64,000 nt of DNA, taken from contig OZ024742.1 in NCBI GenBank assembly GCA_964016885.1, forward strand, positions 3,534,001 to 3,598,000, read 5' to 3'. Below the pieces are notes generated by a model. That model searched no databases. It had not been told where the DNA came from and saw only the letters and a list, made by a program, of their open reading frames with translations. How positions within the stretch are numbered: the first letter of the stretch is position 1; each line of letters starts with the position of its first letter. The position numbers were made by a program, and so were the translations under genes. Shown here one piece after another: positions 1,387 through 27,229 of the stretch. Origin of the DNA: Eledone cirrhosa (taxonomy: Eukaryota).

Positions 1387-4381
1387 GTGAAGCCACGCTT
1401 CTTATCGCCTCCAGTTTTTTTCAACGTTTTACCGCGTTTTCAACCTTTCTAAACCTTTTATTCAAGTTTTAAATTTGATAAAAGTTTAGAAGAAGTGACC
1501 CACCTAATACAAGGGCTCACTAGTAAATAAGAGGGCCCCCTTTTAAGGGGCGCCGTATTCGTATTTGTGTAAAAATAGACTATTTGAGGAAAATAGAGTA
1601 GAGGGAGAGCTAGTCAGAAAGCTAGAAGAGGCGTTTAGGACAAGCATCGAAACCGACGTGCTTGCGGCGAGATTGGCACTCGACCAATTCTTCAACGCAA
1701 AACACGAAGGCTGCGTTGTCAGAGCTAGAGCGCGTGCTCTGAAACACGAGGGGACAAAAGCCGTCCAAAGGGACCGGGTGGCAGAGGCGCGACGTGGCAA
1801 CAAAGCCACAATTCGGTCTTTGTCTGACCAAAACGGGTGCGTGATGCTCGAACCCGAGCGGATGTGTGAATCTTTTCAGCAGTACTTTGCTGAACTCTTC
1901 GGGAGCGGCGGCAGCCCGGGTCGGGACATGGACTTCAGTGCATACCTCGACGCACTGCCTCCGCTCTCGACGACCGCAGCACAGTGTTGCGAAAAGCCAA
2001 TAACAGCCGGTGAAATACGGGAAGCGATGGCTAACTGCACAAGGGGTAATCGCCAGGTTTGGAAGGTCTGCCCTACGCGCTTTATGCATTTATGCCAGAC
2101 TTGTTCGGTGACCTCTTTGCAGACGTCTACTGCAACTGGCAGCAGAACGGGAGCATTCCCAGTTTTGTGAGCCGGGGAGCAGTTGCGCTGCTGAAGAAAG
2201 ACCCGAACAAGGGGGATGTTATCGATAATTTCAGGCCCATAACCATGCTAAACGCAGAGTTCAAGATCTTGGCCAAGGTGTTAGCAACGAGGCTGGCACT
2301 TGTCGTCAAGGGTCTGGTGGGAGAAGCGCAGACATGCGCCATTCCGGACAGATCCATACACGACAACCTCCACCTCATGCGATACATCATAGAGAGGGTG
2401 GTTAAGGAACCTGGCAAGGGTGGGGCCTTGATCAACTTGGATCAATCCAAAGCATTCGATAGGGTCGACCATCGGTACCTGGCGGCGGTCCTCGAGGCAG
2501 CCGGTTTCGGGCCCGCTTTTAGGGGGTTGGATCGCAGCAATGTACAGCGACATCTGCTCAGTTGTGAGGGTGAACGGTCTCCTGTCGCAGCCATTCAGCA
2601 TCATGCGCTCAGTCCACCAGGGTTGTCCCCTCTCCTCCCTCTTGTACGTATTGGCTCTCGAGCCGTTACTGCACAAATTGGGAGCGAAGAGGGGCGTCCC
2701 ACGCGAACTAGGATGCGGGAAATCCGAGTCGGCTTACGCTGACAAAGTCACCGTGGTGGTGTCGAGCACCAGACACGTCTAGATGCTCGGCACCGCTCTC
2801 AAGGAATACGAAGCGGTGACAGGAGCAAAGATAAACCAGGAAAAGTCGGTGGGCTTGCAGCTCGGCACCTGGAGAGGCAAGTCCATGCCGTCCGACAGCG
2901 TCGTGGGGCGTTGGATGGACGGACCGGTTAAATTGCTCGGGGTCTGGTTCGGACCGGACCTCCAGATGGAGAAAAACTGGAACGAGGTGACGAGCAGGGT
3001 GGCCTCCCTCACCCAGAAATGGGCTGAGAGGAAGCTGTCCCTGAAAGGCCGGGCGGAGGTGATGAATGCGTACATCGCATCCGTCATCTGCTACCCCCTC
3101 ACCGTCGTCCCTTGCTCCAGCCCAACTCTCACCAAAATGGAGCGCCTCCTCTTCCGCTTTTTGTAGAAGGGACGCGCTCCCATGGTCAGACGATCCATCT
3201 GCTGTCAACACCCGTTGCGTGGAGGACTGGGCATGCCATGGCTGATGATGCGCAAACATGCGCTGAGGCTGCGACATCTCTGGTGCTTCCCTGACGGTAA
3301 ACAGGTGTGGTCGCCGTTCGCCAGGTACGTTTTCCCACAGCTCATCTCCTTGACGGAGCTGCAGTCCTGGGTCAGAAAAAGACCGAGGGATAGCGCATGG
3401 AAACTGGAATGTCTCCAGGCGATCACTGCCCTCTGCCACCTGGGCACCAGTATCGGTGGAACATCCACCTCGGCGTTCTATAGAGGACTAGTGGACGGGA
3501 AGAGCGACGACATTCTCGGAGAGATACTGGGCGTCGAAGAAGATCAGCTGTTTGCTCTCTTCCGGAGAACTTTCAGCCCGGGGCCTATGGATAACTTCCA
3601 AAAATTCCTGGCCTGGCAGTGCTACCCGGGAGCGCTGCCGGTTCGAGATAAGCTCTACAGGCACGGAAGTGCCGTCAGCCGAGCCTGTCCGAGATGCGCG
3701 CAGAGCGACGAAACCGTCGTGCACGCACTCGTTCAGTGCCCGAGCATTGCTGACTTGTGGAGCTATGTCGAACAGTTGCTGTCGCGTGTAGGACTGATCC
3801 GGTTGTCGACTGAGTCCATTGTGCAGATGGTCTCGCCGTCTTCCTTCGAGGAGGAAGGGCAGGCGGTTTTCATCTGCCTGGTGGCCATGACGAAAGATAT
3901 TGTGTGGTGGACAAGGTTAAAAGGGTTAAAGACAGACACTTTCCTCTTCGGCGAATCCCTAATTAAATTTTTCAAGTTTCACTTGAAGAGGAAAATCAGG
4001 GTGGAGAGGCAAGTGCTGCCTTCTAGCAAGTTTGGTGAAAGGTGGGTGAATGTAGCGAGAATGGTCCGAGTGAACGGGACCACTCTGAATATACTTCTGT
4101 AGTTTGAGAGATGGAAAAATTGAGAGAGGGCGCTTACTCTGAAGGGCAGGGTGGCCGTGGTCTTTTGTGTGGTTTTCGCCACGAGTGAAACACGGAGGTA
4201 TTGGGGAATTTTTCATTGTTTCAATTTTCATTTTTATTGTTTATATATATGTTTCTATGTCCTTTTTTTTTCTTTTCTTATATATTAATAAAAATATTTA
4301 CACGCACAAAACCAACATTGTACCGTCCTGTGCCGTCTATAATATTTTTCTTGATGTCAGCCCTTGTGGCCAATAAAGAAA

Positions 4382-4428
<47 letters not shown>
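1387..4428 (+). mobile_element. Tx1/L1-clade copy 2, diverged subfamily, lacking ORF1 and endonuclease; ORF2 pseudogene ~1575-4102
   Basis: RT motifs FRPITMLNAEFKILAK, LDQSKAFDRVDH, QGCPLS; YADD changed to YADK; C-terminal CPRC...H...C. Frameshifts near 2050 and 2525, stops at ~2781 and ~3164. AATAAA at 4372, (ATT)n 4381-4428. Confidence 0.92.
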
Positions 4429-4642
4429 GAATGCCATGGTTGACGGAGGCTCGGCTCTGTAAGGTATAGTAATTTTTAACCGTTAAAACAATTGTAAATT
4501 GTTTAAAACTTGAACCAAATTGTTGATAAAGACACCCTCCTCCTCGTGAGAGGGGTCTTTCTGTCCGTTATTTGGCCCTTCGGGGTTAAATAACCAGTTA
4601 TTGGGGTTTTGTACCCAATATTCATTTTAAACAAAAAACAAC

Positions 4643-6739
4643 ATGGCTACGAAAAAGAAATTTCATACGTCACTCCCACTCATTCCGTCTTCTCCTTCCT
4701 CAATCATCACTACAGCAGAGAGAAGATTGTCTCTCTCCCTCCCTTCTTTAAATGTGTCTCTCTCCCTCCCTTCTCTTTCGCAAGTGACGAAAGAAAAGAA
4801 AAGTCTCGTGCAAAGCGTGCAAGGTTTCTCCACGACGACGACGACAGCGACGAAACAGGTGTGCGGGAAATACGAAAACCCAGTTCATTCGTCTCACGTC
4901 AGGAATAATAGCAGTAGCAGCCGTAATAACAACAGCAACAGTGACAATGAAAACAACAGTAGCAGCCGCAACAGCATCACCAGCAGCATAAACAACAACA
5001 GCATTAGCAGCAGCAACACCAACAACAACCACAGCAACAGCGGCGGAGGCAGTAGTCGTAGTACCTGCAGCAACAACAAAAGTACCAGCAGCTCTGACGA
5101 CAACAACAACAGCAGGGAAAAACCAATCTCATTTGCAGGTATTGCGAAAAACTTGGAAACAATCCTCATAACAAATGAGGAATTAGAGGAAGCGAAGAAG
5201 ATGGTGACAAAGAACGGACACCGAGCAATCTGCAAGGCAGCGAAAAATTTTTTCGAAACCCAAGAGCACTGTACGGTCACGTACCGTACAGTAAGTACAA
5301 AATCCCGTAGGGTGGAAAGAGCCACAGAGGCCCAAATACAAAAAGCCTTGGGGTCTGTGTGGCAGCGGAAAACGCACATCACCCGAGGCAAAAAATATGC
5401 CACCGTAGACGTACTTTTTGCCACACCCCAGGAGGCAAAGGCCCAATCAGTAGTGACCCTAAGGAGCGAGGAAATGGTGTTGGTGCCCTCCTACTGTGGG
5501 CAAAAAATTGTGAGGGTCAAACTGACCCACGTCCCCCCCGGAATGACCCCTTCTTGGCTGGCCGCGTCTGTCCTCGTCGGAATCGAGGACAAAACAACTG
5601 TACTGCAAGTACAGAAAAAAGTAAGAGAAGATTGGGTCGGCTCCTCCATTGAGATGCTAATCCAAACCAACCAGGAGTGCATCGAAGCTATCCCGGATGT
5701 GATAGACTTCGATAACGGCACTCAACTGCCCATAAGTGTTGAGGGCAAACGCCCGAAATGCTTTCGCTGTGGATCGAAGACTCACCTCAGGGCCTTCTGC
5801 AACGAGAAGACCCTGAGAAAGGAGAAAACCCCCCTCCTTCCGAATCCGGCTCCACGGCTACCAGCAACAGGACAAGCGGCAACCAGGAACGATAGGCCCG
5901 TGGCACCCATACCCACTCCACGGAAATCAAAAACAGCAGCAGCAGTGGAAATACTAACAACAACAACAGCAATACCAAATGCAGCTGCAACAGAGACTCC
6001 AGTGCAAACATCACCAACAACAACAAGTGAAAGAGTGGAGTTGGTACCCCTCCCCGACCTCACAGAATCAGACATGGAGTGTGAGGTGGGAGAGAGATGG
6101 CAAAAGGTTGTAAGAAGGCACAAACGCAGAAGCAGCGCATCGTCGCCTTTGAAAAGGGAGGAAAGAAATGAGAAAAGGGTAAAGTCTACTGCAAAGAGAC
6201 CCACAGCAGCAACAACACCAACACCATCACCACCCACACTAGCGCCACCATCACCACCGGCGACAACCCCACCGCCAACAACACCTTCAACACCACCACC
6301 ACAAGCACCAACATCGCAAACACAACAACAAAACACACACACCCAGCAACAACGACAAGAAAATAGCAGAACCACACCCCACCCCCAGAAAAACAAATGC
6401 ACGGCAATAAATACACACAACAAGAAACTAATGACTTACATAATTGAACACACAGACATTTCACAACAGGACTACATAATACCAGCACCAATCAAAACGC
6501 CAACTAACATAAGACTGCTAAAAATAGCACAGAAACAATACACAAATATTAAAACGAAATTCCCCAACGCAGTTGGTGATTTCAGGGACCTGGGAGGAAC
6601 CATCAATCGAAGAGTATACTCAGACATTCTCTTAGAAGAGCCGACGACCAGCCGAAGGGACGATTCAACGGTCCCTTCACCAGACGATCAAGTGAAAAGG
6701 GATGTAAAAACCATCCCTCCTCTACCAAAAGTACGGTAA
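4643..6739 (+). CDS. Retrotransposon ORF1 (gag-like nucleic-acid-binding protein, 698 aa)
   Basis: Open 698-codon frame upstream of ORF2, with CCHC knuckle CFRCGSKTHLRAFC, N/S-rich and P/T-rich low-complexity segments and a basic stretch. Confidence 0.88.
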   Translation: MATKKKFHTSLPLIPSSPSSIITTAERRLSLSLPSLNVSLSLPSLSQVTKEKKSLVQSVQGFSTTTTTATKQVCGKYENPVHSSHVRNNSSSSRNNNSNSDNENNSSSRNSITSSINNNSISSSNTNNNHSNSGGGSSRSTCSNNKSTSSSDDNNNSREKPISFAGIAKNLETILITNEELEEAKKMVTKNGHRAICKAAKNFFETQEHCTVTYRTVSTKSRRVERATEAQIQKALGSVWQRKTHITRGKKYATVDVLFATPQEAKAQSVVTLRSEEMVLVPSYCGQKIVRVKLTHVPPGMTPSWLAASVLVGIEDKTTVLQVQKKVREDWVGSSIEMLIQTNQECIEAIPDVIDFDNGTQLPISVEGKRPKCFRCGSKTHLRAFCNEKTLRKEKTPLLPNPAPRLPATGQAATRNDRPVAPIPTPRKSKTAAAVEILTTTTAIPNAAATETPVQTSPTTTSERVELVPLPDLTESDMECEVGERWQKVVRRHKRRSSASSPLKREERNEKRVKSTAKRPTAATTPTPSPPTLAPPSPPATTPPPTTPSTPPPQAPTSQTQQQNTHTQQQRQENSRTTPHPQKNKCTAINTHNKKLMTYIIEHTDISQQDYIIPAPIKTPTNIRLLKIAQKQYTNIKTKFPNAVGDFRDLGGTINRRVYSDILLEEPTTSRRDDSTVPSPDDQVKRDVKTIPPLPKVR

Positions 6740-6774
6740 GTGGTCTTTCCCATCTTTTCCACTCTATTTTAAAC

Positions 6775-9700
6775 ATGACCTCACTCAGAATAGGCAGCAT
6801 AAATGCGCGTGGCTTGGGGTCGTCATGGAAGCAGGGTCACCTGCTCAACGACCTCAGGTCACTAAACATAGATGTAGTGGCCATCAGCGAGACCAGAATC
6901 TCCGAAGCACGGGCCTTCGCACCGATCTTCGGCGGCTACGATGTGTACGCATCTCCCAGCCGTCCTGGATCCGGTGGAGGAGTTGCTGTACTTTTTCGGA
7001 GAGGTTTGGATCTCGCCATACGGGCCATCTTCCTGGACCCAGAGGGTAAGCTGGTGGTGCTGGACGTGACCAGCGGAGACGGGCAAGCTTTCAGGCTAGT
7101 GGCCGTCTATGCCCCGACAGGAGCAGGGCGGCCTGATTTCTTCCGGCGTCTGGAGACCTTTCTTGGAACGTCCCGCTCTTTAGTGTTAGTGGGCGACTGG
7201 AACGGGATCTTAGATGCACGCTGGGACTGTGTGGGATTAGCGGATAGGGGTGGAGGGTGCAAGAGCCTCACCAACCTGCTCAGGCGTTTTGAACTGTCTG
7301 ACAGGTACCGATTGGATTTCCCGAATGTGCCAATGTGGACTTGGACAAACCGCATAGGGTCATCCAGATCATATCTAGATAGAGTATTTTGTAGGGAAAT
7401 AGATAGGTCTAGCATAGGCTGTCCACAATTCAAGATAGTCAGCTACACGGACCACAAATTCGTGACCTGTGTGCTTGACTTAGATAGGCTTCATAGACGA
7501 GGACCCGGCTACTGGAAGCTAAACGCGTCCTTACCAGCGCGCAAGGCCTACAGAGACCGGATTAGCGAACTAGTTAAGCGGGCGTTGACGGGGGCCATCG
7601 TCAACAACAAGTGGTGGTTTGCTCTGAAAAGAGCGATTAGAATAGAATCGATTAGGTTTAGTAAGGCTTTAGCAATAGAGAAAAATAGAGCAGAGGGAGA
7701 ACTAGTTAAAAAATTAGACGAGGCGCTTAGCAAAGGCATTGCGACCGACGTGCTTGCGGCGAAATTGGCCCTTGACCAATTCTTCAATGCAAAGCACGAA
7801 GGCTGCGTTGTCAGAGCTAGGGTGCGTGCTCTCAGACACGAGGGGACGAAAGCCGTTCAATGGGCCCGAGTGGCGGAGGCGCGTCGTGGCAACAAAGCCA
7901 CGATCCGGTCTTTGGTGGACCACGACGGGCGCATGCTACTCGATCCCGGGCAAATGTGTGAAGCTTTTCAGCGACACTTCGCTCAGCTGTTCGGGGGCAG
8001 CGGTGGGCCGGGTAGAGGGATGGACTTTAGTGTCTACCTCGACGGACTGCCGCGGCTCTCGGCCACTGAGGCGAAGTGTTGCGAAAAGCCGATAACAGCC
8101 GCTGAAGTAAGGGAGGCAATGACTGGCTGCACAAGGGGTAAATCGCCTGGTTTGGATGGTCTGCCCTATGAACTTTACGTACAGATGCCAGACTTGTTCG
8201 GAGGCCTCTTGGCGGACGTCTACTGCAACTGGCAACAGAACGGGAGAATTCCCAGTTCTGTGAGCCGAGGAGCGGTGGCACTGCTGAGAAAGGATCCGAA
8301 CAAGGGGGATAACATAGACAATTTCCGGCCCATAACTCTGCTAAACACAGAGTTTAAGATTTTGGCCAAGGTGCTAGCAAAGAGGTTGGCGCTTGTCGTT
8401 GGTGGTCTGGTGGGAGAGGCGCAGACATGCGCCATTCCCGACAGATCCATCCACGACAACCTCCACCTCATGCGATACATCGTAGAGAGGGTAGCTAGGG
8501 AACCTGGCACGGGTGGGTCCTTGATCAATTTAGATCAGTCGAAAGCTTTCGATAGGGTCGACCATCGTTACCTAGCGGCAGTCCTGAGGGCGGCTGGCTT
8601 TGGGCCCGTCTTCAGAGGCTGGATCGCTGCCATGCACAGCGACATCTGCTCTGTGGTGAGAGTGAACGGTCACCTGTCGGAACCGTTCAACATCATGCGC
8701 TCGGTCCGCCAAGGATGTCCCCTCTCGTCCCTCTTGTACGTATTGACTCTCGAGCCATTACTGCACAAACTGGAGACGTTGAGGGGGTCCCGCGCGAACT
8801 AGGATGCGGAAGATCCGTATCAGCATATGCGGACGATGTCACCGTAGTGGTGTCGAACGCCAAACACATCGAGGCGATCGGCACTACACTAAGAGAATAC
8901 GAAGCGGTGACAGGAGCAATGATCAACCAGGAAAAGTCAGTGGGCCTGCAGCTCGGCACCTGGAGAGGCAGGTCCATGCCGTCCAACAGCGTCGTCGGAC
9001 GCTGGACGGACGGACCGGTTAAATTGCTAGGGGTCTGGTTCGGTCCGGACCTCCAGACGGACAAAAACTGGGACGAGGTGACGAGCAGGGTGGCTTCTCT
9101 CACCCAGAAATGGGCCGAGAGGAAGCTATCCCTGAAAGGTCGAGCGGAGGTGGCTAACGCGTACATCGCGTCCGTCATCTGCTACCGCCTGACCGTCGTA
9201 CCTTGTCCTAAGCCTCGCCTGACTGTGCTGGAGCGTTTGCTCTTTCGCTTTTTGTGGAAGGGACGCGCTCCGATGGTCAGGCGGTCCATCTGTTGTCAAC
9301 ACCCGCTACGTGGAGGGCTGGGCATGCCGTGGCTGATGATGCGCAGGCACGCGCTCAGGCTACGACATCTCCACCTCTTCCTCGACGGTGATCAGGTGTG
9401 GTCGCCGTTTGCTAGACGCGTGTTTCCCCAGCTCGTTTCCTTGACGGAGCTGCAGTCCTGGGTCAAGCGAAGACCGAGAGGGAGCGCCTGGAGACTGGAA
9501 TGTCTTCAGGCGCTCACAGCCCTCGACCAATCGGGCAATGTGATCGGTGGAAACTCCACCTCGGCGTTCTATAGAGGATTAGTGGAGGGGAAGAGCGACG
9601 ACGTACTTGGGGAAACTCTAGGCGTCGACGAAAATCAACTAGCCAATCTCTTCGGAAGAACTTTCGGGCCAGGGCCTATGGACAACTTCCAGAAATCTCT

Positions 9701-10193
9701 GGCCTGGCAGTGCTACCGAGGAGCCTTGCCAGTTCGGGATAAACTCTACAGGCATGGAGGTGCCGTCAGCCGGGCATGTCCGAGATGCGCGCAGGGCGAC
9801 GAAACCGTCCTGCACGCACTCGTCCAGTGTCCGAAAATTGCTGACTTGTGGGTTTATGTCGAACACCTGCTGTCGCGTTTAGGACGGATCCGGCTATCAT
9901 CTGAGTCAATCGTGAGGATTGCCCCGCCCTCCTCCTTTAGCCGGGAAGGGCAGGCAGTTTTTATCTGCCTGGTGGCCATGGCGAAAGAGATAGTATGGTG
10001 GACACGTTTGAAAGGGCTGAAGACGAGCACTTACCTCTTCGGTGATGCTCTGATTGACTTTTTCAAATTTCATTTGAAAAGGAAAATCAGAGTTGAGAGG
10101 GAAGTGCTCTCTTCCCAGCATTTTGTTGAAAGATGGGTGAGAGAAGCAAGAATGGCCCGAGTGAATGGGCCTACTCTGAGCATATATCTGTAA
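6775..10193 (+). CDS. Retrotransposon ORF2: AP-like endonuclease + reverse transcriptase + C-terminal zinc knuckle; single 1-bp frameshift at ~8785
   Basis: GSINARGL, VAISET, VYAP, LVGDWN, YLDRVF, YTDHK (APE); KSPGLDG, LDQSKAFDRVDH, VRQGCPLS, YADD (RT); CPRC..HALVQC. ORFs 6775-8802 and 8715-10193 join if one base is restored in GAGGGGGTCC (copy 2 reads AGG GGC GTC). Confidence 0.92.
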
Positions 10194-10441
10194 ATTAAAG
10201 GTGGAAAACTGGGAGAGGGCACTTGCCTTGGTGGTCAGGGTCATTGTGGCTTTTTACTGGGCTTTCTCCACAAATGTCCCTCCGAAGTCTCCCCCCTATT
10301 GGGGAATTTTTCATTGTTATTTTTTGTTACATCCTCTGCTTTTGTTTTTTACACGCAGAAATGCCCATTTGTACCGTCCTGCATTGTCCTGCACTGTCCT
10401 TAATGTCTACTTTATGTAAACCCTTGTGGTTAATAAAGAAA

Positions 10442-10483
<42 letters not shown>

Positions 10484-10484
<1 letters not shown>

Positions 10485-12120
10485 AGCTGCATTTATCTTG
10501 CTTTATCTTCATACGAGTTATCACCAAGTCACAACCAGTGACCTCAAGAGACAACAAGATCCGCCATGTTCAAGAAAGAACATACATACACACACATGCA
10601 TCTTTAGGTGTTTAGACTTGTGATGTACTTATATTGACAGAATCTTCCTTAGTATATGGGCAGTTCCCATTAGTACTATATTTTGTATTTCTCCTATACG
10701 CGGGTTTCTTGGGATTTGCGATAAGTAATCATTAGACCCCTTGGGTATCATTCCTAGAGCGCCTACAACCACTGGTATTGTATTAGTTCTCAACTTACAT
10801 ATTTTTCCAATTTCTATCTCCAGGTCTTTATACTTGCTCAATTTTTCAAATGTTTTTATAGATACATTCTTATCTATTGGAACGGACATATCAATTAGCA
10901 GGCATACCCTCTTTTTAAAGTCCTTCAGTATTATATCAGGTCTATTTGCATCTATTTTTCGGTCTGTTTGGATGCTAAAGTTCCACAAGATTGAGATGTG
11001 ATCTTTTTTAAGCATGGTAGGTGGTTATTATTATTATATGGTTGATGCTCCCACCAATTCTTTTGATAGGCAGGTCAAAATGCTTACACATTATCCAATG
11101 TATGTATTGTGCAGCTCTGTCATGCCTGTTTAGGTATTCGGTTGGAGCTATAGGACTGCACATTGAAATTATATGTTCAATGGTCTCTGGTTGTTTTTTA
11201 CATACACGGCCTAATGGGTTACATCCACTTTTTATTATGTTGGCTTGGTAATTTTTTGTTGGCAGACACTGACCTTGTGCTGATAAAATCAGTCCTTCAG
11301 TCTCCGATTTCAGTCCAGAGGATGCCAACCACTGATGCGTTAAAGTTTTGTCAACATCAGGATTGTTAGCTCTTTCTGGGTATTCTCCATACAGAAGCTT
11401 TTCTTGCCATTTCTTAGCCAGTTTGTGTAGCAGTTCTTTCTTTGCAGTTACTTTTACCTGCTTTGCTTTTTCAGTGTTTTTCATTTCAGCAGTAAATGAA
11501 ACTTCTGAAATTTGTAGTCCATTGCTGTATCTTTGTGCATCTTTTGTAATGGAGTATGATCTTTTGATGCTTTCATGTTTCAAAACGAGTTTGATCATCC
11601 AATCTTGTGATTCCCTTAGATGTGTAGATAATCCAACTGTTGCAGATTTCAAAGCAATATCTGACTGGATTAATCCACGTCCCCCTTCTTTCCTAGGGAG
11701 ATATATTGTATCTGTATCTACCTTAGGGTGATGCATTCTGTGCATGGTTAAGAATTTTCTAATTTTTGTATCGAGCCTACGGATCTTTGTGCTTGACCAG
11801 TTGATGACATTGTAACTTTAGGTTACTACTAGTATGGCATCGATCCTATTCCTTGAATTCAATTCCGTTCTTAAGATTGCTCTTACTCTGCGGTAACGTC
11901 CTTCCTTATCCTTTCCCTCATTGTTGAGTGCTTGATTCCGTCTCCTTCACAAACACCTAGATATTTGTAAGTTTCCTCTTGATCAAGTTCCCTTATCACA
12001 TTTCCCCGATCAAGATTAATGTCTGAACTTCTCAGCAGCTTTCCTCTGGTGAACGTGGCTTTGGCGCATTTGTCTAGTCCAAACTCCATTATAATATCAT
12101 CACTGAACTGCTTCACAGTG
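10484..12120 (-). mobile_element. Dong/R4-clade (RLE) non-LTR retrotransposon, 5'-truncated and degenerate
   Basis: MEFGLDKCAK, YKYLG, GGRGL, LKSETEGLILSAQ, ETIEHIISMC, RHD, NRPDII..IDMSVP..KLSKY, IPVVVGALG in frameshifted minus ORFs; ends in (TAA)n on the minus strand. Confidence 0.88.
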
Positions 12121-14992: not shown

Positions 14993-17263
14993 ATTGTTAT
15001 ACTTGGGGAGGGTCATATTTGTGTAATATTGCCAGAATTAATAAGAGAACACACTCACTGTTTGGTTGGTTTTCGCTTCTCGCTGTCTTTTATATCGGTA
15101 ATCTAACTTACTCGGTCCTCAGTGTTGCCATTGACTGACCGACGGTCAAAAAATAATACAGATACAATATAGACACAAACACATATATATAGTTTATCAT
15201 AAATCTTTCGTTGCACATCTGCAACATCGTCAGTGGTGTTATATTTTCCTCCTGTTGTGTTCTATGTCTACGCCATTTTTATTCAGTCTGTCTATATATT
15301 TATTTATTTATTTGCTTGTTTGTTTATTTTATTTTGTCTTCTTTGCGCATGCGTTTGCGTGTGTGTATAGTGTTTTGTTTGCTGTGTGATGGGTGACTAG
15401 TGTGTGTTTATGTGCTTGTTGTTATTGTGCTTGTGTATGTATTTATTTATTTATTTATCTTATTTATTTACTTATTTATACTTCTCTTAGGTCAGTGTTG
15501 TTTGTTTGGGTGTTGTTATTCCATTCATTCTTTCTGTTTAGTCTTGGTCTTCTAATTTCTATTTCACTGGCCTCTCTGATTTGCCTATCTGCTGGGTCAT
15601 TTCTATGTTTAGATATTATTCTAATTTCTATGTTGTCTATGTTACCGTCATGTTGTTGTCTAGCATGTTCGTATAGTACTGACCTAGCTATGGTGAACTG
15701 TGCCTCTGTCTCGTCATCTATTTGTTGTGGTATGCAAACTCTTTTATTAAAGGGTAACCTCGTAGGATAGATATTACCCATCTTATATGTTTTGTCAGCT
15801 GGGTTGAAAAATAGTTTCTCTAAGGGGTTGTCATTATATCTATCGTCATAGTTGTGTGTGTTGCTATTATTGTTATCAGGGTGGTTGTTGTTGTTTCAAT
15901 CATTAGCATTACTATTATTGTTATGATTGCTAGATGTATTGTTGTTTACTTCACCGTTATTGTTGTTGTTGTTACTGTTATTTCTACCATTGTGGTTGTT
16001 ACTTTTATAATGTTTCTTGTTTTTGTTGTCTCTATCATTGATGTTGCTACATGTACTATTTCCATTATTACCACTGTGGTTATTGTTGTTGTTGTTCGTA
16101 TTGTTACCGTTATTACTACTGTTGTCGCTGTTGCTGTGTCTGTGGTTAATGTTTCTATTATTATTATTATTGTGGTTGTTGTTGTTCTGTCTATCGCTAG
16201 TATTATTGCCATTATCACTATTTCTCACTTTCCTGCTATTGTTATAGTTATGGCTGTTATTTCTATACTCAGAGTTATTGTCCTGAGAAAGACCCACTTA
16301 AAAATAAAGGTGGTAGAAAATCCAGGAACCACCATAACATCCCTGATCAGCAAAACCTACCCTTTTAAGAAAACCCACTGTACCAATAGGAAATGTATCA
16401 TATGTAAGGTGAACCCCCGGATAAACTGTAAAACTAGAAACGTAGTCTATAGCATAAGATGTACAGAGGGTACTTGCAGAAACATGACAACAACATACAT
16501 AGGTGAGACAGCTCGTAGCATAGGTGAAAGGATAGACCAACACTGGGGGGAACTAAAAGGACGAAAAAACGGGTCAGTACTATACGAACATGCTAGACAA
16601 CAACATGACGGTAACATAGACAACATAGAAATTAGAATAATATCTAAACATAGAAATGACCCAGCAGATAGGCAAATCAGAGAGGCCAGTGAAATAGAAG
16701 TTAGAAGACCAAAGCTAAACAGAAAGAATGAATGGAATAACAACAACACCCAAACAAACAACACTGACCTAAGAGAAGTATAAATAAGTAAATAAATAAG
16801 ATAAATAAATAAATAAATAAATACATACACAAGCACAATAACAACAAGCACATAAACACACACTAGTCACCCATCACACAACAAACATAACACTATACAC
16901 ACACGCAAACGCATGCGCAAAGAAAACAAAATAAAATAAACAAACAAACAAATAAATAAATATATAGACAGACTGAATAAAAATGGCGTAGACATAGAAC
17001 ACAACAGGAGGAAAATATAACACCACTGACGATGTTGCAGATGTGCAACGAAAGATTTATGATAAACTATATATATGTGTTTGTGTCTATATTGTATTAT
17101 TGTTTGACCGTCGGTCAGTCAATGGCAACATTGAGGACCGAGTAAGTTAGATTACCGATATAAAAGACAGCGAGAAGCGAAAACCAACCAAACAGTGAGT
17201 GTGTTCTGTTATTAATTCTGGCAATATTACACAAATATGACCACCCTCCCTAAGTATAACAAT
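14993..17263 (+). mobile_element. Penelope-like element fragment (GIY-YIG end, Neptune-like Cys-rich linker) with ~690-bp inverted arms 14993-15684 / 16572-17263
   Basis: HCTNRKCIICK..NCKTRNVVYSIRC..C..YIGETARSIGERIDQH..EHARQQH..RQIREA..PKLNRKNE at ~16290-16783; arms are reverse complements; (AT)n on both flanks. Confidence 0.88.
17022..17063 (+). ncRNA. Minimal hammerhead motif in PLE terminal repeat (mirror copy on minus 15196-15237)
   Basis: ACCA CTGACGA TGTTGCA GATG TGCAAC GAAA GATT TA TGAT; stem I imperfect. Confidence 0.55.
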
Positions 17264-23965: not shown

Positions 23966-24944
23966 AGAAGCAAAACACTGTTTATTGTGATCCAGTTTTT
24001 GGTTAAGAAAGCCAGTTTCACGGATGGTTTCAACGTACGGTTAGGGGTAACTCCACAGGTTTGTAAGAATTCCGTTCAATCTTGGAGTATAAAGTATAAA
24101 AGAGAAAACACAGGTAAGCATTAAGAGAAGGATTTTATCCAGGTATTTACGACCGTTTCATTGGTAAGTGCAACCTTATATTGCTATACTGCAAATAGCA
24201 GCCACTCAATTATAATTGTTGTTCACAGTCCAAATTTTCAAAATAGTGATTAAGTTACTCTTGAAATAATTCTTAATATATAGAGAAAAACATTTATTTG
24301 GAATTATATTTACTAGTATAGAGAGAGAGAGGAATCAGGAGGTGAGGGGTCAGACGGAATAGTATAGAGAGAGAGAGAGGAAGGGGGAAGAGGTAGGAAG
24401 TAGAATGACAAACTGAGATGGAGGGAGGGGTAGAGGTGGAAGGATTCCTTGGTCAGTTTTGATAGCAGACTTCATGTCGTGGAATGTAGTGAGTTAAAGA
24501 GAATTAAATTGATCATAGTGGGAGGGATGGATAGAGAGGGAGAGAGAGGGGGGATGTATAAAGAGATAAATATATATATATATATATAAAAATAAAGATA
24601 AAGATAATAATGACAAAAATAAAAGCAAAGAAGGGGGTGAGAAAGAAGAAAAGAAAAGATAGCCAAGAAGGGGAGGGAAGGAAGGGAGAAAACGAAGGAA
24701 TAGAAGAGGAATGAGGGAGAAGAGGGGGATATATGTATTGGTTTTGTGGGTAATTAAAGGGTTTAGATACAACAAAAGGGTATAAAGTCTAAGTATATGC
24801 AGTTTGTCAGTTGGTAGTAAGAGGTTAAGGGTTCGATTTGTAGTGCGAAAATTTCTCTTTGAGTCTATGGTTACAATAAATTGATCTCTCGATTTTATTG
24901 TTGAGTAACTTATTCTTCGAGCTTAAAAGGATTATACTCTCGGG

Positions 24945-27229
24945 ATGATACAACGAACAAACGACTTTATACACAGAGTTAGATGGAAAACTTTCCATTT
25001 CGACAAAGGACCTAATAGTCGCACCGTGGAATATAACAAGGAAACATACGGCTTCAAATCGTGTAAAAACCCACCTACCAACCCTCAACTGGATGCCTTT
25101 GAACAGGACTTAGTGAAGATAATTATGAATATCAAATTCAAAAAGCGGAGGAATAATAAACTCCAGAATGACATAAATACATTCCTAAAAAAGCTGCGAA
25201 CCACCAATGGAATTATTGTCAAAGCGGACAAAACATCAACTGTGTATACGATGGATGTTAATACATACAATAGCTTCATACGGAAGGAATTACATAGGAA
25301 ATACAAAAAAACAAATGAGGCGGCACTGATAAACATCAACAACGAGGCACACAATATAGTCAAACACCTAGGAATAGACGACAGAACGGAGCCACTTAGG
25401 CCATGCACCCCTACCTTTAACCTCAAAGACCACAAGGTAAATTTTGATTATAACCCCACTATTAGACTTATATGCCCATCCAAATCGGACATAGGGAAAA
25501 TTAGTAAACATATATTAGACAGAGTGATAGCACAAATGAAGAATAAACTAGTGATTAAACTATGGGGTAACGCTACCGAAACAATTAAGTGGTTTAACAA
25601 TATAACTAACAAAGAGGTATCTAAATTTATACAATTTGACATTAACGATTACTACTCATCTATATCCTCCAACACCTTGGATAAAGCCTTAGCATTCGCC
25701 AAAGCCAATTGTGACATAACAGACGACGAGATAAAAATCCTATTAGCTGCTAGGAAAACAATAATTAAATTTGAAAACGCCTATTGGGAACGTAAGGATA
25801 GATTAAATAACTTTGACATCACGATGGGGGCTAACGACTCGGCTCAAGTCACAGACTTAGTAGGTATTTACATAGCCCATAGTTTACAAAGTGAGTTTAG
25901 CGACCTTCACGGTGGAATCTACAGAGACGACGCCCTTCTCCTAGTTAAGAACCTAAATAACCAGAGCATAGAAAGACTCCGTAAGAATATTAGAAAGACT
26001 CTCGGAAAACTAGGCCTTAGCATAACGTATGAGTATAGCACTAAAACAGCTAACTTTCTAGATGTGACGCTTAACCTAAATACAGGACTTATAAGACCTT
26101 TTCACAAGATTAATGAAAACTTAGCATACATCAACTGTAACTCAAACCACCCACTATCCATAATTAAATCCATTCCACGCAGCATATCCCTTAGGATCTC
26201 CCGCCTCTCGTCTAACCGACAAATCTTCGAAGAACATGCAGAATACTACAACACCGCATTAGACAAGGCAGGCCACTTAGATAGAGTAGAATATATAGAT
26301 GAAAGCCTCCGTGAAGCGCACACAAACACGCATAACACAAACTCCAGAAACCACGCATACACACATTTACGCATAGAACTCCAAAGTATACGGCAAATAG
26401 AAATACAACATCGAAATCAAAAAAGTCACGCAGTAGAAAATATATTTGGTATAACCTCATATTTAACACCTCTATTAGTACTAACCTACCCTCTACCTTC
26501 TTTAGAATAATAAATAAGCACTTTCCAGATTCACATAGATACAGCAAAATCCTTAACACTAAATCTATTAGATTATCTTACTCCACGGCACCAAATATAG
26601 AGGCACACATTAAGATGCTTAACGCTAAAAAGATACATAACAACACCAAAACACAAATTTACAACAATAACAACACAATCACCACCGAAAATAACATAAT
26701 ATCTAATACACAACCACCCGCTAATAGGCAAACAAAACGTAACACAATTGTTCAGGCATCGCAGCCCACAAATAATGCCAAAGTTGCCCATGACAAGAAC
26801 TGTAACTGCCACCTACCTGAAACCTGTCCATTACATAATGAATGTATGCAGTCTAACCTGGTTTACCAATGCACAGTGGAATCAGAGAACCAGAAATGGT
26901 ATTACATCGGAGCGACTGGGAATACATTTAAAGCCCGTTAGTATACACACCGTTACGCAATGAAACATTCCCAGCACCGTTATGTAACTACCCTTGCAAA
27001 CAAGACCTGGCAACTGAGGGAAAGTAACCATCAATACACCCTGAAGTGGAAAAAATTATCGAACGTGCCCCCATATTGGAGTGGTATGAGAAACTGTCGA
27101 TTGTGCGACCTTGAGCTGTTCCACATCTTAAGCTCGAAGAATAAGTTACTAAACAATAAAATCGAGAGATCAATTTATTGTAACCATAGACTCAAAGAGA
27201 AATTTTCGCACTACAAATCGAACCCTTAA
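24945..27229 (+). pseudogene. PLE polyprotein: reverse transcriptase + GIY-YIG endonuclease; one frameshift (~26320-26420) and one TAG (26939-26941)
   Basis: FIHRVRWK, YGFKS, VKADKT, LKDHK, FDINDYYSSI, ITMGANDSAQ, GIYRDDAL, NFLDVTLNL, SNHP, IWYN..KHFP, NCNCHLPETCPL, VYQCTV..YIGATGNTFKAR, CRLCDLE..CNHR. Confidence 0.9.

Follow-up and report, generated by a model that had tools for sequence, protein, structure and literature searches.

What is the role of a 5' splice-site motif that coincides with the stop codon of ORF1 in an octopod LINE? The element lies in a 64,000-nucleotide stretch of the Eledone cirrhosa genome (contig OZ024742.1, positions 3,534,001 to 3,598,000), hereafter the window, and all of its features are on the forward strand. 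It is a young L1/Tx1-type LINE with more than a thousand near-identical copies. An (ATT)n run (4384–4428), which is the tail of an upstream copy and the likely insertion target, precedes the 5' UTR (4429–4642). ORF1 (4643–6739; ATG at 4643, TAA at 6737–6739) encodes 698 amino acids that include a CX2CX4HX4C knuckle and are of low complexity at both ends. A pyrimidine-rich spacer of 35 nt that lacks AUG (6740–6774) leads to ORF2 (6775–10193; ATG at 6775), which encodes APE endonuclease, RT and zf-RVT domains (PF03372, PF00078 and PF13966 in a Pfam search) and has human L1 ORF2p as its closest solved structure in a PDB search (E 6e-52). ORF2 is frameshifted near 8782 in the window copy and is open in many other copies. 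The element ends with an AATAAA signal (10432–10437) and an (ATT)n tail (10444–10483).

On its structure and targeting, as distinct from an RT tree, the element is assigned to the Tx1 clade of the L1 group. It resembles the L1-group Tx1 LINEs Kibi and Koshi in its knuckle-bearing ORF1 and in an ORF2 with APE, RT and zf-RVT domains, and, like them as described in PMC4494074, it inserts at microsatellites. The same start base directly follows (ATT)n in 11 of 11 other full-length copies, which indicates a preference for this repeat as a target. L1-Tx1 families are reported to be active in Octopus vulgaris (PMC13282606). The ORF1 knuckle was read from the translation; no Pfam family passed in a profile search, and the 299 ORF1 relatives from a protein search are all unnamed. 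An Rfam search of the element gave no match near the gathering score, and two metagenome scans returned, respectively, nothing and only distant relatives (25–51% on their best segments). The octopod elements differ from other Tx1 LINEs in two features, namely a conserved donor at the end of ORF1 and intron-like cassettes in the 5' UTR.

ORF1 terminates in CG|GTAAGT, in which the donor GT occupies 6736–6737, and the pyrimidine-rich spacer follows immediately. The 5' splice-site motif (6733–6741), a presumptive U1-binding site, thus overlaps the stop codon. We compared it across sister families, which we named F1–F13 and sampled within the initial 29 Mb of a single contig; their ORF2 DNA is 70–88% identical to that of the window element. 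Of 100 sister-family copies (the first 100 listed of 8494, read by eye), 97 carry the donor GT where ORF1 ends. When scored with human frequency matrices, applied here to an octopod element, the window donor ranks first among 295 GT sites, and the equivalent donor ranks first or tied first among 267–315 GT sites in 17 of 18 elements. With the same human matrix, only 6 of 3269 other stop triplets from 16 representative elements lie inside a donor that scores at least 6. Relative to ORF1, most families have the donor in phase 2, F4 and F12 have it in phase 1, and F6 has it in phase 0. It persists in these last three families, where it no longer supplies the stop, and varies within the donor consensus only, whereas its flanks are unrelated and cannot be aligned between families. 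Retention in all three phases means that the motif is a by-product of neither the stop codon nor a fusion of the two ORFs. The ORF1 stops of 13 distant LINE loci lack it. On this comparative sequence evidence, the donor at the ORF1 end is not a chance occurrence but a conserved 5' splice-site motif.

Does this donor serve to fuse the two ORFs? The preliminary description of the locus had read 6736–6788 as a candidate 53-nt GT-AG intron whose removal would join ORF1 in frame to ORF2 as a possible route of ORF2 expression. The geometry was correctly described, since the CG|GTAAGT donor and pyrimidine-rich spacer are followed by CAG (6786–6788) as the first downstream AG and computed excision joins the ORFs in frame; the CAG, which had been placed in codon 5, starts on the final base of codon 4 and ends on the second base of codon 5. 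The first AG is in frame in 11 of the 16 representatives and, via a non-conserved AG, in one F5 copy. Conservation among sister families holds for the donor, but neither for its phase nor for the acceptor. The near acceptor, an AG within an Arg codon, ranks an unremarkable 21st of 261 AGs in the window element and 35–229 outside F1 and F1b; among the 16 representatives, 11 have AAG or GAG here and 4 have a first AG that is out of frame, and F5 lacks an acceptor at the equivalent position. Of the 11 in-frame cases, 7 have a GT-AG stretch of 28–42 nt (39–42 nt in the abundant families), versus 58–69 nt for the 5' UTR cassettes. Furthermore, the ORF2 AUG is kept in a strong context, which is CAACATGG-like in 14 of 16 representatives, the exceptions being F6 and a deletion-bearing F10 copy. 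F6 has neither this AUG nor an in-frame near splice, although it is active; its ORF2 pN/pS is 0.23 for shared variants versus 0.58 for singletons (13 copies). A 52-nt spacer variant also exists and leaves the phase unbroken, because the phase is set by the two ends.

Genomic copies also speak against the fusion. None of 1233 copies of the window family lacks the stretch (rule-of-three bound 0.24%), in contrast to the approximately 1.8% of full-length copies that PMC5860796 attributes to cis-competent spliced human L1 RNAs. Exact loss of the GT..AG stretch was found in one of 13 matches, copy L188, which may be a SpIRE-like spliced retrocopy, but its join bears 3 nt of microhomology and is out of frame because L188 belongs to a phase-1 family. 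In L353, a near-complete deletion of the spacer lies off the splice sites, and in L183, a non-GT point is joined to the AG used in L188. On the other side, 77 of 77 whole matches still carry the 5' UTR cassette, and should this cassette be a true intron, a stretch can persist in DNA and nevertheless be spliced from RNA. A protein search for long ORF1-containing fusions and near-length ORF1 relatives found none, which weighs little, and contigs of four runs of unrecorded type searched with the junction, and of three searched with the whole element, contained no joint at 6735 among the matches listed and were counted neither way. Altogether, the in-frame fusion is poorly supported and likely does not occur as the route of ORF2 expression, a role that we consider highly improbable for the short intron, and a low-level in-frame splice may exist in the window element's family alone. 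As a separate candidate, -1 frameshifting in the open ORF overlap of the window element's family was rejected because the overlap is not kept, the ORF2 frame being open for 8–74 codons upstream.

We tentatively propose, at somewhat less than even confidence, that the donor docks U1 and splices past all of ORF2 to generate an ORF1-only mRNA, while ORF2 is expressed from unspliced RNA. The donor at the ORF1 stop would serve as a docking site for U1 on the full-length transcript; if spliced, it would probably be joined to an acceptor near the 3' end, so that all of ORF2 is removed (6735 to 10359 in the window element) and the product serves as an mRNA for ORF1 alone. ORF2 would be translated from the unspliced RNA by termination-reinitiation, and the spacer, which is retained in genomic copies, is short and AUG-free as in LINEs that use this route (35 nt here; a stop-start overlap in F6). 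The ORF1-only RNA encodes no RT, and cis preference would therefore keep it out of the genome. A junction at a stop codon escapes junction-triggered decay, and the proposed junction would avoid such decay and leave ORF1p almost unaltered.

The skip of ORF2 is favored because acceptor scores peak at the ORF2 stop or in the 3' UTR. Among 37 elements scored (8 more were skipped, and AGs within 66 nt of the donor were excluded), 31 have an acceptor in the segment from the ORF2 stop to AATAAA that ranks first or second of approximately 230–280 AGs per element. In the large group A, this top terminal acceptor coincides with the ORF2 stop; in F1, F1b and F10, it is a 3' UTR CAG. In the window, a 3' UTR pyrimidine tract with CAG at 10356–10358 (10310–10358) is the top-scoring acceptor of the element and a candidate partner of the donor in a 3623-nt skip. 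The predicted joined RNA encodes an unchanged ORF1p in F2, F8, F9b and F11 and adds 20–79 residues in some families; strong terminal acceptors are lacking in F12 and in most copies of F4 (ranks 7–29). For 9 of the 11 group A representatives, 17–62% of synonymous recoding trials reach the acceptor score that is observed, with F6 (0.003) and F8 (0.065) as the only outliers; the encoded amino acids mostly account for the pyrimidine tract upstream of the ORF2 stop. Acceptor-like sites also arise by chance, as the 3' UTRs are U-rich. Genomic copies with the long skip were found neither among 77 F1-group copies in which a base other than G follows the exon end nor in two further searches (0 of 42 examined of 137, and 0 of 39). 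In F6, a search with a motif that fits 13 of 13 F6 loci had no match, and the single match of another search was a different deletion. Such anchored pattern searches miss copies with changed anchors, and of 30 sampled loci from all families, the group A motif recovered 12. A genome pattern for a more distant subgroup gave 10 matches, which were variants of known families or noise.

Would U1 docking alone account for the motif? A U1 site that is rarely spliced could shield this long, A-rich and intronless RNA from being cleaved and polyadenylated too early, or alter its transcription or nuclear handling. Both where ORF1 ends and in the 5' UTRs, donors are better conserved than any acceptor; in the 5' UTRs, F2 and F8 keep the donor without a well-placed acceptor, and no recurrent spliced copies of any kind occur among the genomic copies searched. 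In 12 of 15 representatives, A[AT]TAAA hexamers occur in the 520 nt that precede ORF2, although this region is about 40% A, and U1 is reported to repress premature termination in the EVD retroelement (PMC5580714). Docking alone, however, needs neither the top-ranked acceptors at the element end nor the AG found past the donor in most 5' UTR cassettes, and we regard it as a credible but unlikely explanation. It is still less likely, and indeed rather improbable, that the motif is an inherited context of a C-terminal Arg codon, a stop and a G with no role in splicing. In favor of such a context, the sample spans only about three deep lineages, and fourfold-degenerate ORF2 sites are likewise invariant in 18 of 80 codons, though only in these, of the same 16 representatives. 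Group A also has a GT directly after the ORF2 stop, and a human L1 donor is kept for another reason, as a transcription-factor site (PMC5860796). An inherited context is at odds with survival of the motif where it is no longer a stop, with variation confined to the donor consensus between unalignable flanks, with its first rank in the element and with the rarity of other stops in such a context.

The ORF2 skip that we favor may not be the only splicing event in these elements. The 5' UTR contains a 68-nt, intron-like GT..AG cassette (4464–4531), a candidate intron that is weak in the window copy and textbook-like in sister families, and most such cassettes place an AG 58–69 nt after the donor. 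Possibly, although we hold this with reservation, the octopod clade is an intron-bearing LINE lineage with two RNA pools, in which spliceosomal introns (58–69 nt in the 5' UTR, and from the ORF1 stop across ORF2) yield the ORF1p mRNA and unspliced RNA alone supplies ORF2p and genome copies.

The closest parallel is found in Ty1/copia elements (Arabidopsis EVD shGAG, Drosophila copia and barley BARE1), which share with the octopod LINEs a strong donor close to where the structural ORF ends. In EVD and other copia elements, a single U1 site both splices a GAG-only RNA and protects the full-length RNA (PMC5580714), and BARE1 is a further precedent for a subgenomic GAG RNA (PMC3735527). The spliced RNA makes structural protein and the unspliced RNA is the template, a plan that the octopod elements share in prediction; however, Ty1/copia elements are LTR elements with one polyprotein and a demonstrated splice, whereas the octopod element is a two-ORF LINE with a predicted one. 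Human L1 is likewise a LINE with a conserved donor and rare spliced retrocopies, the SpIREs, but the sites studied in PMC5860796 lie in the 5' UTR and ORF1 and their products are dead ends, whereas the octopod donor lies where ORF1 ends and spliced copies are either absent or rarer by at least a hundredfold. L1 and SART1, which use termination-reinitiation, have a short AUG-free spacer or a stop-start overlap before ORF2 (PMC5972666); the octopod spacer is similar, and in F6, the stop overlaps a non-AUG start position. Among non-LINE elements, Penelope-like elements are described as keeping introns in their DNA copies. Ogre LTR elements keep in DNA an intron whose removal eliminates stops between coding regions, although an Ogre-like in-frame fusion fails the phase test in the octopod elements. 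Our search of the open-access literature, with subscription papers and Repbase notes outside its scope, found no LINE whose ORF1 stop carries a donor and none with intron-like 5' UTR cassettes or an ORF1-ORF2 splice fusion.

The ORF1:ORF2 ratio of LINEs is thought to be set by poor reinitiation on one bicistronic RNA, and L1 splicing has been described as harmful. If the proposed splicing is real, the octopod elements would represent a LINE clade whose splice signals have been selected through promoter and spacer turnover, with a second, copia-like route to excess structural protein and template choice. Even without splicing, a conserved U1 site in an intronless retroelement would provide a clean case for U1 protection of long RNAs. 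The family offers three exact predicted junctions, 6735/6789 for the fusion, 6735/10359 for the ORF2 skip and 4463/4532 for the 5' UTR cassette.

The 53-nt stretch at 6736–6788 lies in a full-length LINE (4429–10483 of the window), which belongs to F1 among the sister families. The element consists of ORF1 (4643–6739; 698 aa, with a zinc knuckle), a 35-nt spacer and ORF2, which starts at the ATG at 6775 and encodes APE endonuclease, RT and zf-RVT domains. ORF2 of the window copy contains a frameshift near 8782 and is open in many other copies. For an intact copy, human L1 ORF2p is the nearest relative of solved structure. The named protein matches come from Argonauta hians and Octopus sinensis, in keeping with a likely octopod host. 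The family is young, given that all 40 scored junction-region matches are 100% identical.

The preliminary description proposed that a GT-AG intron splices ORF1 in frame to ORF2. On re-checking the sequence, the stretch is real: the donor lies at 6736, CAG occupies 6786–6788 and removal keeps the frame. Donor conservation among sister families was also borne out. A pattern search anchored on the first motif of ORF2, with the window element's family left out, retrieved 8494 copies; among the first 100 listed, sorted into about 13 families (F1–F13) and judged by eye, 97 have the donor's GT where ORF1 ends, and the exceptions are one truncation, one point change and one deletion. All motif variants (GTAAGT, GTAGGT, GTGAGT and, once, GTAATT) stay inside the donor consensus. 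ORF2 DNA identity to the window element is 70–88% across sister families (97% in F1b), and ORF1 ends and spacers are unalignable between deep groups. In 17 of 18 elements, scored with a human matrix, the donor ranks first or tied first among 267–315 GT sites, and of 3269 other stop triplets in these elements just 6 have a comparable donor context. The ORF1 stop carries no donor in any of 13 distant metagenomic LINE loci, four of which have ordinary stop-start overlaps. Selection probably maintains the donor as an RNA signal. In an F9 subfamily (11 of 39 matches; L239, L242, L244–L246, L249, L251–L253, L276 and L282), one base is lost just before the donor, which retains its motif in a shifted phase.

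The remainder of the proposed fusion intron is not conserved. Going by protein similarity, most families have the donor in ORF1 phase 2, but it lies in phase 1 in F4 and F12 and in phase 0 in F6. A splice to the first AG would be in frame in 11 of 16 representatives and out of frame in F4, F6, F10 and F12. F5, with CGA as its Arg codon, lacks the near AG; elsewhere it is the AG of that Arg codon, is preceded by A or G in 11/16 and mostly ranks poorly as an acceptor (20–21 in F1, 4 in F1b and 35–229 in other families). The stretch spans just 28–42 nt in seven of the 11 in-frame cases, and stretches of 39–42 nt fall well below the 58–69 nt of the intron-like 5' UTR cassettes, our internal yardstick of intron length. 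Moreover, the AUG within the supposed intron is retained, mostly with CCAACATGG context. It is very unlikely that ORF2 is made through the 53-nt fusion intron.

LINE proteins prefer the RNA that encoded them. The intron-less retrocopies that fusion splicing might leave are missing from the window family: 1233 copies with both flanks have a 31–60 nt spacer, and none has a 0–30 nt spacer. Similarly, all 77 F1-group copies with a non-G base after the exon end reflect point changes or deletions. In human L1, ~1.8% of full-length copies derive from spliced RNAs with coding capacity for both proteins intact (PMC5860796, in excerpt). A search for loss at the near AG across all families gave 13 matches (the left ends of copies L181, L182 and L189 being unassignable), of which one, L188 of F4, is exact. 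This old copy is cut short in ORF2, and its join is out of frame with 3-nt microhomology; similar deletions occur away from splice sites in L353 and L183. The copy, L188 / L264 (G000:C3:46203500-46212500), terminates in (ATT)n roughly 690 nt into ORF2. Two deletions or a processed RNA could account for the exact GT..AG loss together with the early (ATT)n end. Whether L188 is a retrocopy of spliced RNA or the result of deletion, it does not demonstrate fusion.

The 5' UTRs differ among families, yet most (13 of 15 references) contain a donor motif 30–90 nt from the 5' end and an AG 58–69 nt beyond it, an intron-like cassette that in several families also has a pyrimidine tract and a branch-point-like motif (TAAC or TAAT). 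In F2 and F8 the donor persists with no well-placed YAG, and no cassette was seen in F12. Such cassettes occur at 4464–4531 of the window and in the 5' UTRs of L092, L097, L099, L100, L107, L114 and L118. At the fetched 5' ends, none of the 77 whole matches has lost the cassette, and five partial matches are truncations or cross-family matches. Should the cassette be a genuine intron, only unspliced RNA is copied in this clade; this would soften the missing-retrocopy argument and keeps the probability of the fusion splice above zero.

Family F6 (13 of the 100 sampled copies, the first listed of 8494) is abundant and has ATA where others have ATG. Its ORF1 continues across the donor to a stop at this ATA, and the junction offers no in-frame near acceptor. 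In F6 copies (L091–L095 and L341–L348), the ORF1 stop overlaps this ATA one base off frame after an A run. F6 is young, and purifying selection acts on its ORF2: pN/pS is 0.23 for shared variants vs 0.58 for singletons in 13 copies. Because F6 conserves ORF2 without an AUG or an in-frame near acceptor, ORF2 is likely expressed in this octopod clade independently of the fusion splice. Either non-AUG reinitiation or a -1 slip at the stop may operate in F6, and the slip, if true, would yield a natural ORF1-ORF2 fusion. In the distant metagenomic LINE L294 (4000–4200), no in-frame AUG precedes the first ORF2 motif and ORF1 ends inside that motif, making frameshift expression possible. For the clade, our analysis points to termination-reinitiation on unspliced RNA, known from L1 and SART1 (PMC5972666, in excerpt), as the most likely source of ORF2.

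What might the donor do? All splicing statements here are predictions from DNA. Our leading, still tentative, explanation is an ORF2-skipping splice with U1 docking, in which U1 would dock at the donor and the donor would be joined to a terminal acceptor, dropping ORF2 and leaving an ORF1-coding RNA. The best-scoring acceptor of the window element is a 3' UTR CAG (10356–10358) after a long pyrimidine tract, 74 nt before AATAAA. In 31 of 37 scored elements (ORF2 end misplaced in two; eight further elements passed over; AGs ≤66 nt from the donor excluded, dropping strong sites at 28–38 nt in F9 and F13), the first- or second-ranked AG lies between the ORF2 stop and AATAAA. In group A, a large group of sister families, this terminal acceptor is the TAG that stops ORF2, and in F1, F1b and F10 it is a 3' UTR site; among scored elements, F12 and most F4 copies have no strong one. 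The predicted skip would lose ORF2, leave ORF1p unaltered in F2, F8, F9b and F11 and add 3 residues in F6, 19 in the window element and up to about 80 elsewhere. This plan resembles that of copia elements, where a single U1 site makes a GAG-only RNA and protects full-length RNA (PMC5580714, in excerpt), with BARE1 as a further precedent (PMC3735527, in excerpt); we found no LINE of this kind in the open literature.

Besides the missing strong terminal sites in F12 and most F4 copies, a recoding test counts against the skip: synonymous changes to the final ORF2 codons match the observed acceptor score in 17–62% of trials for nine of 11 representatives of group A, the exceptions being F6 (0.003) and F8 (0.065). 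No skip retrocopy appeared among 42 examined of 137 matches or among 39 in a further search, an absence that weighs little because cis preference predicts it. U1 docking without much splicing ranks second and is somewhat unlikely. That the donor is simply inherited context ranks third and appears improbable; the independent lineages behind its conservation are few, about three, and the 16 representatives also agree at 18 of 80 fourfold sites.

In all 11 other copies fetched, the 5' end is the same base directly after (ATT)n, resembling the repeat-adjacent insertion of microsatellite-targeting Tx1 elements (PMC4494074, in excerpt). The flanking repeat varies among sister families (4384–4428 and 10444–10483 of the window; L283–L293; L091–L130): (ATT)n in F1, F4, F10 and F12, (TCTA)n-like in most of group A and a tandem unit of ~70 nt on either side of F2 copies. 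Long open frames without a Pfam match lie at 11008–11817 (minus strand), 15824–16783 and 24927–26510. Directly upstream of the element, two more 5'-truncated broken copies (1–1373 and about 1547–4428), of its own and a sister family, both terminate in (ATT)n, and head-to-tail arrays with ~6 kb spacing are common.
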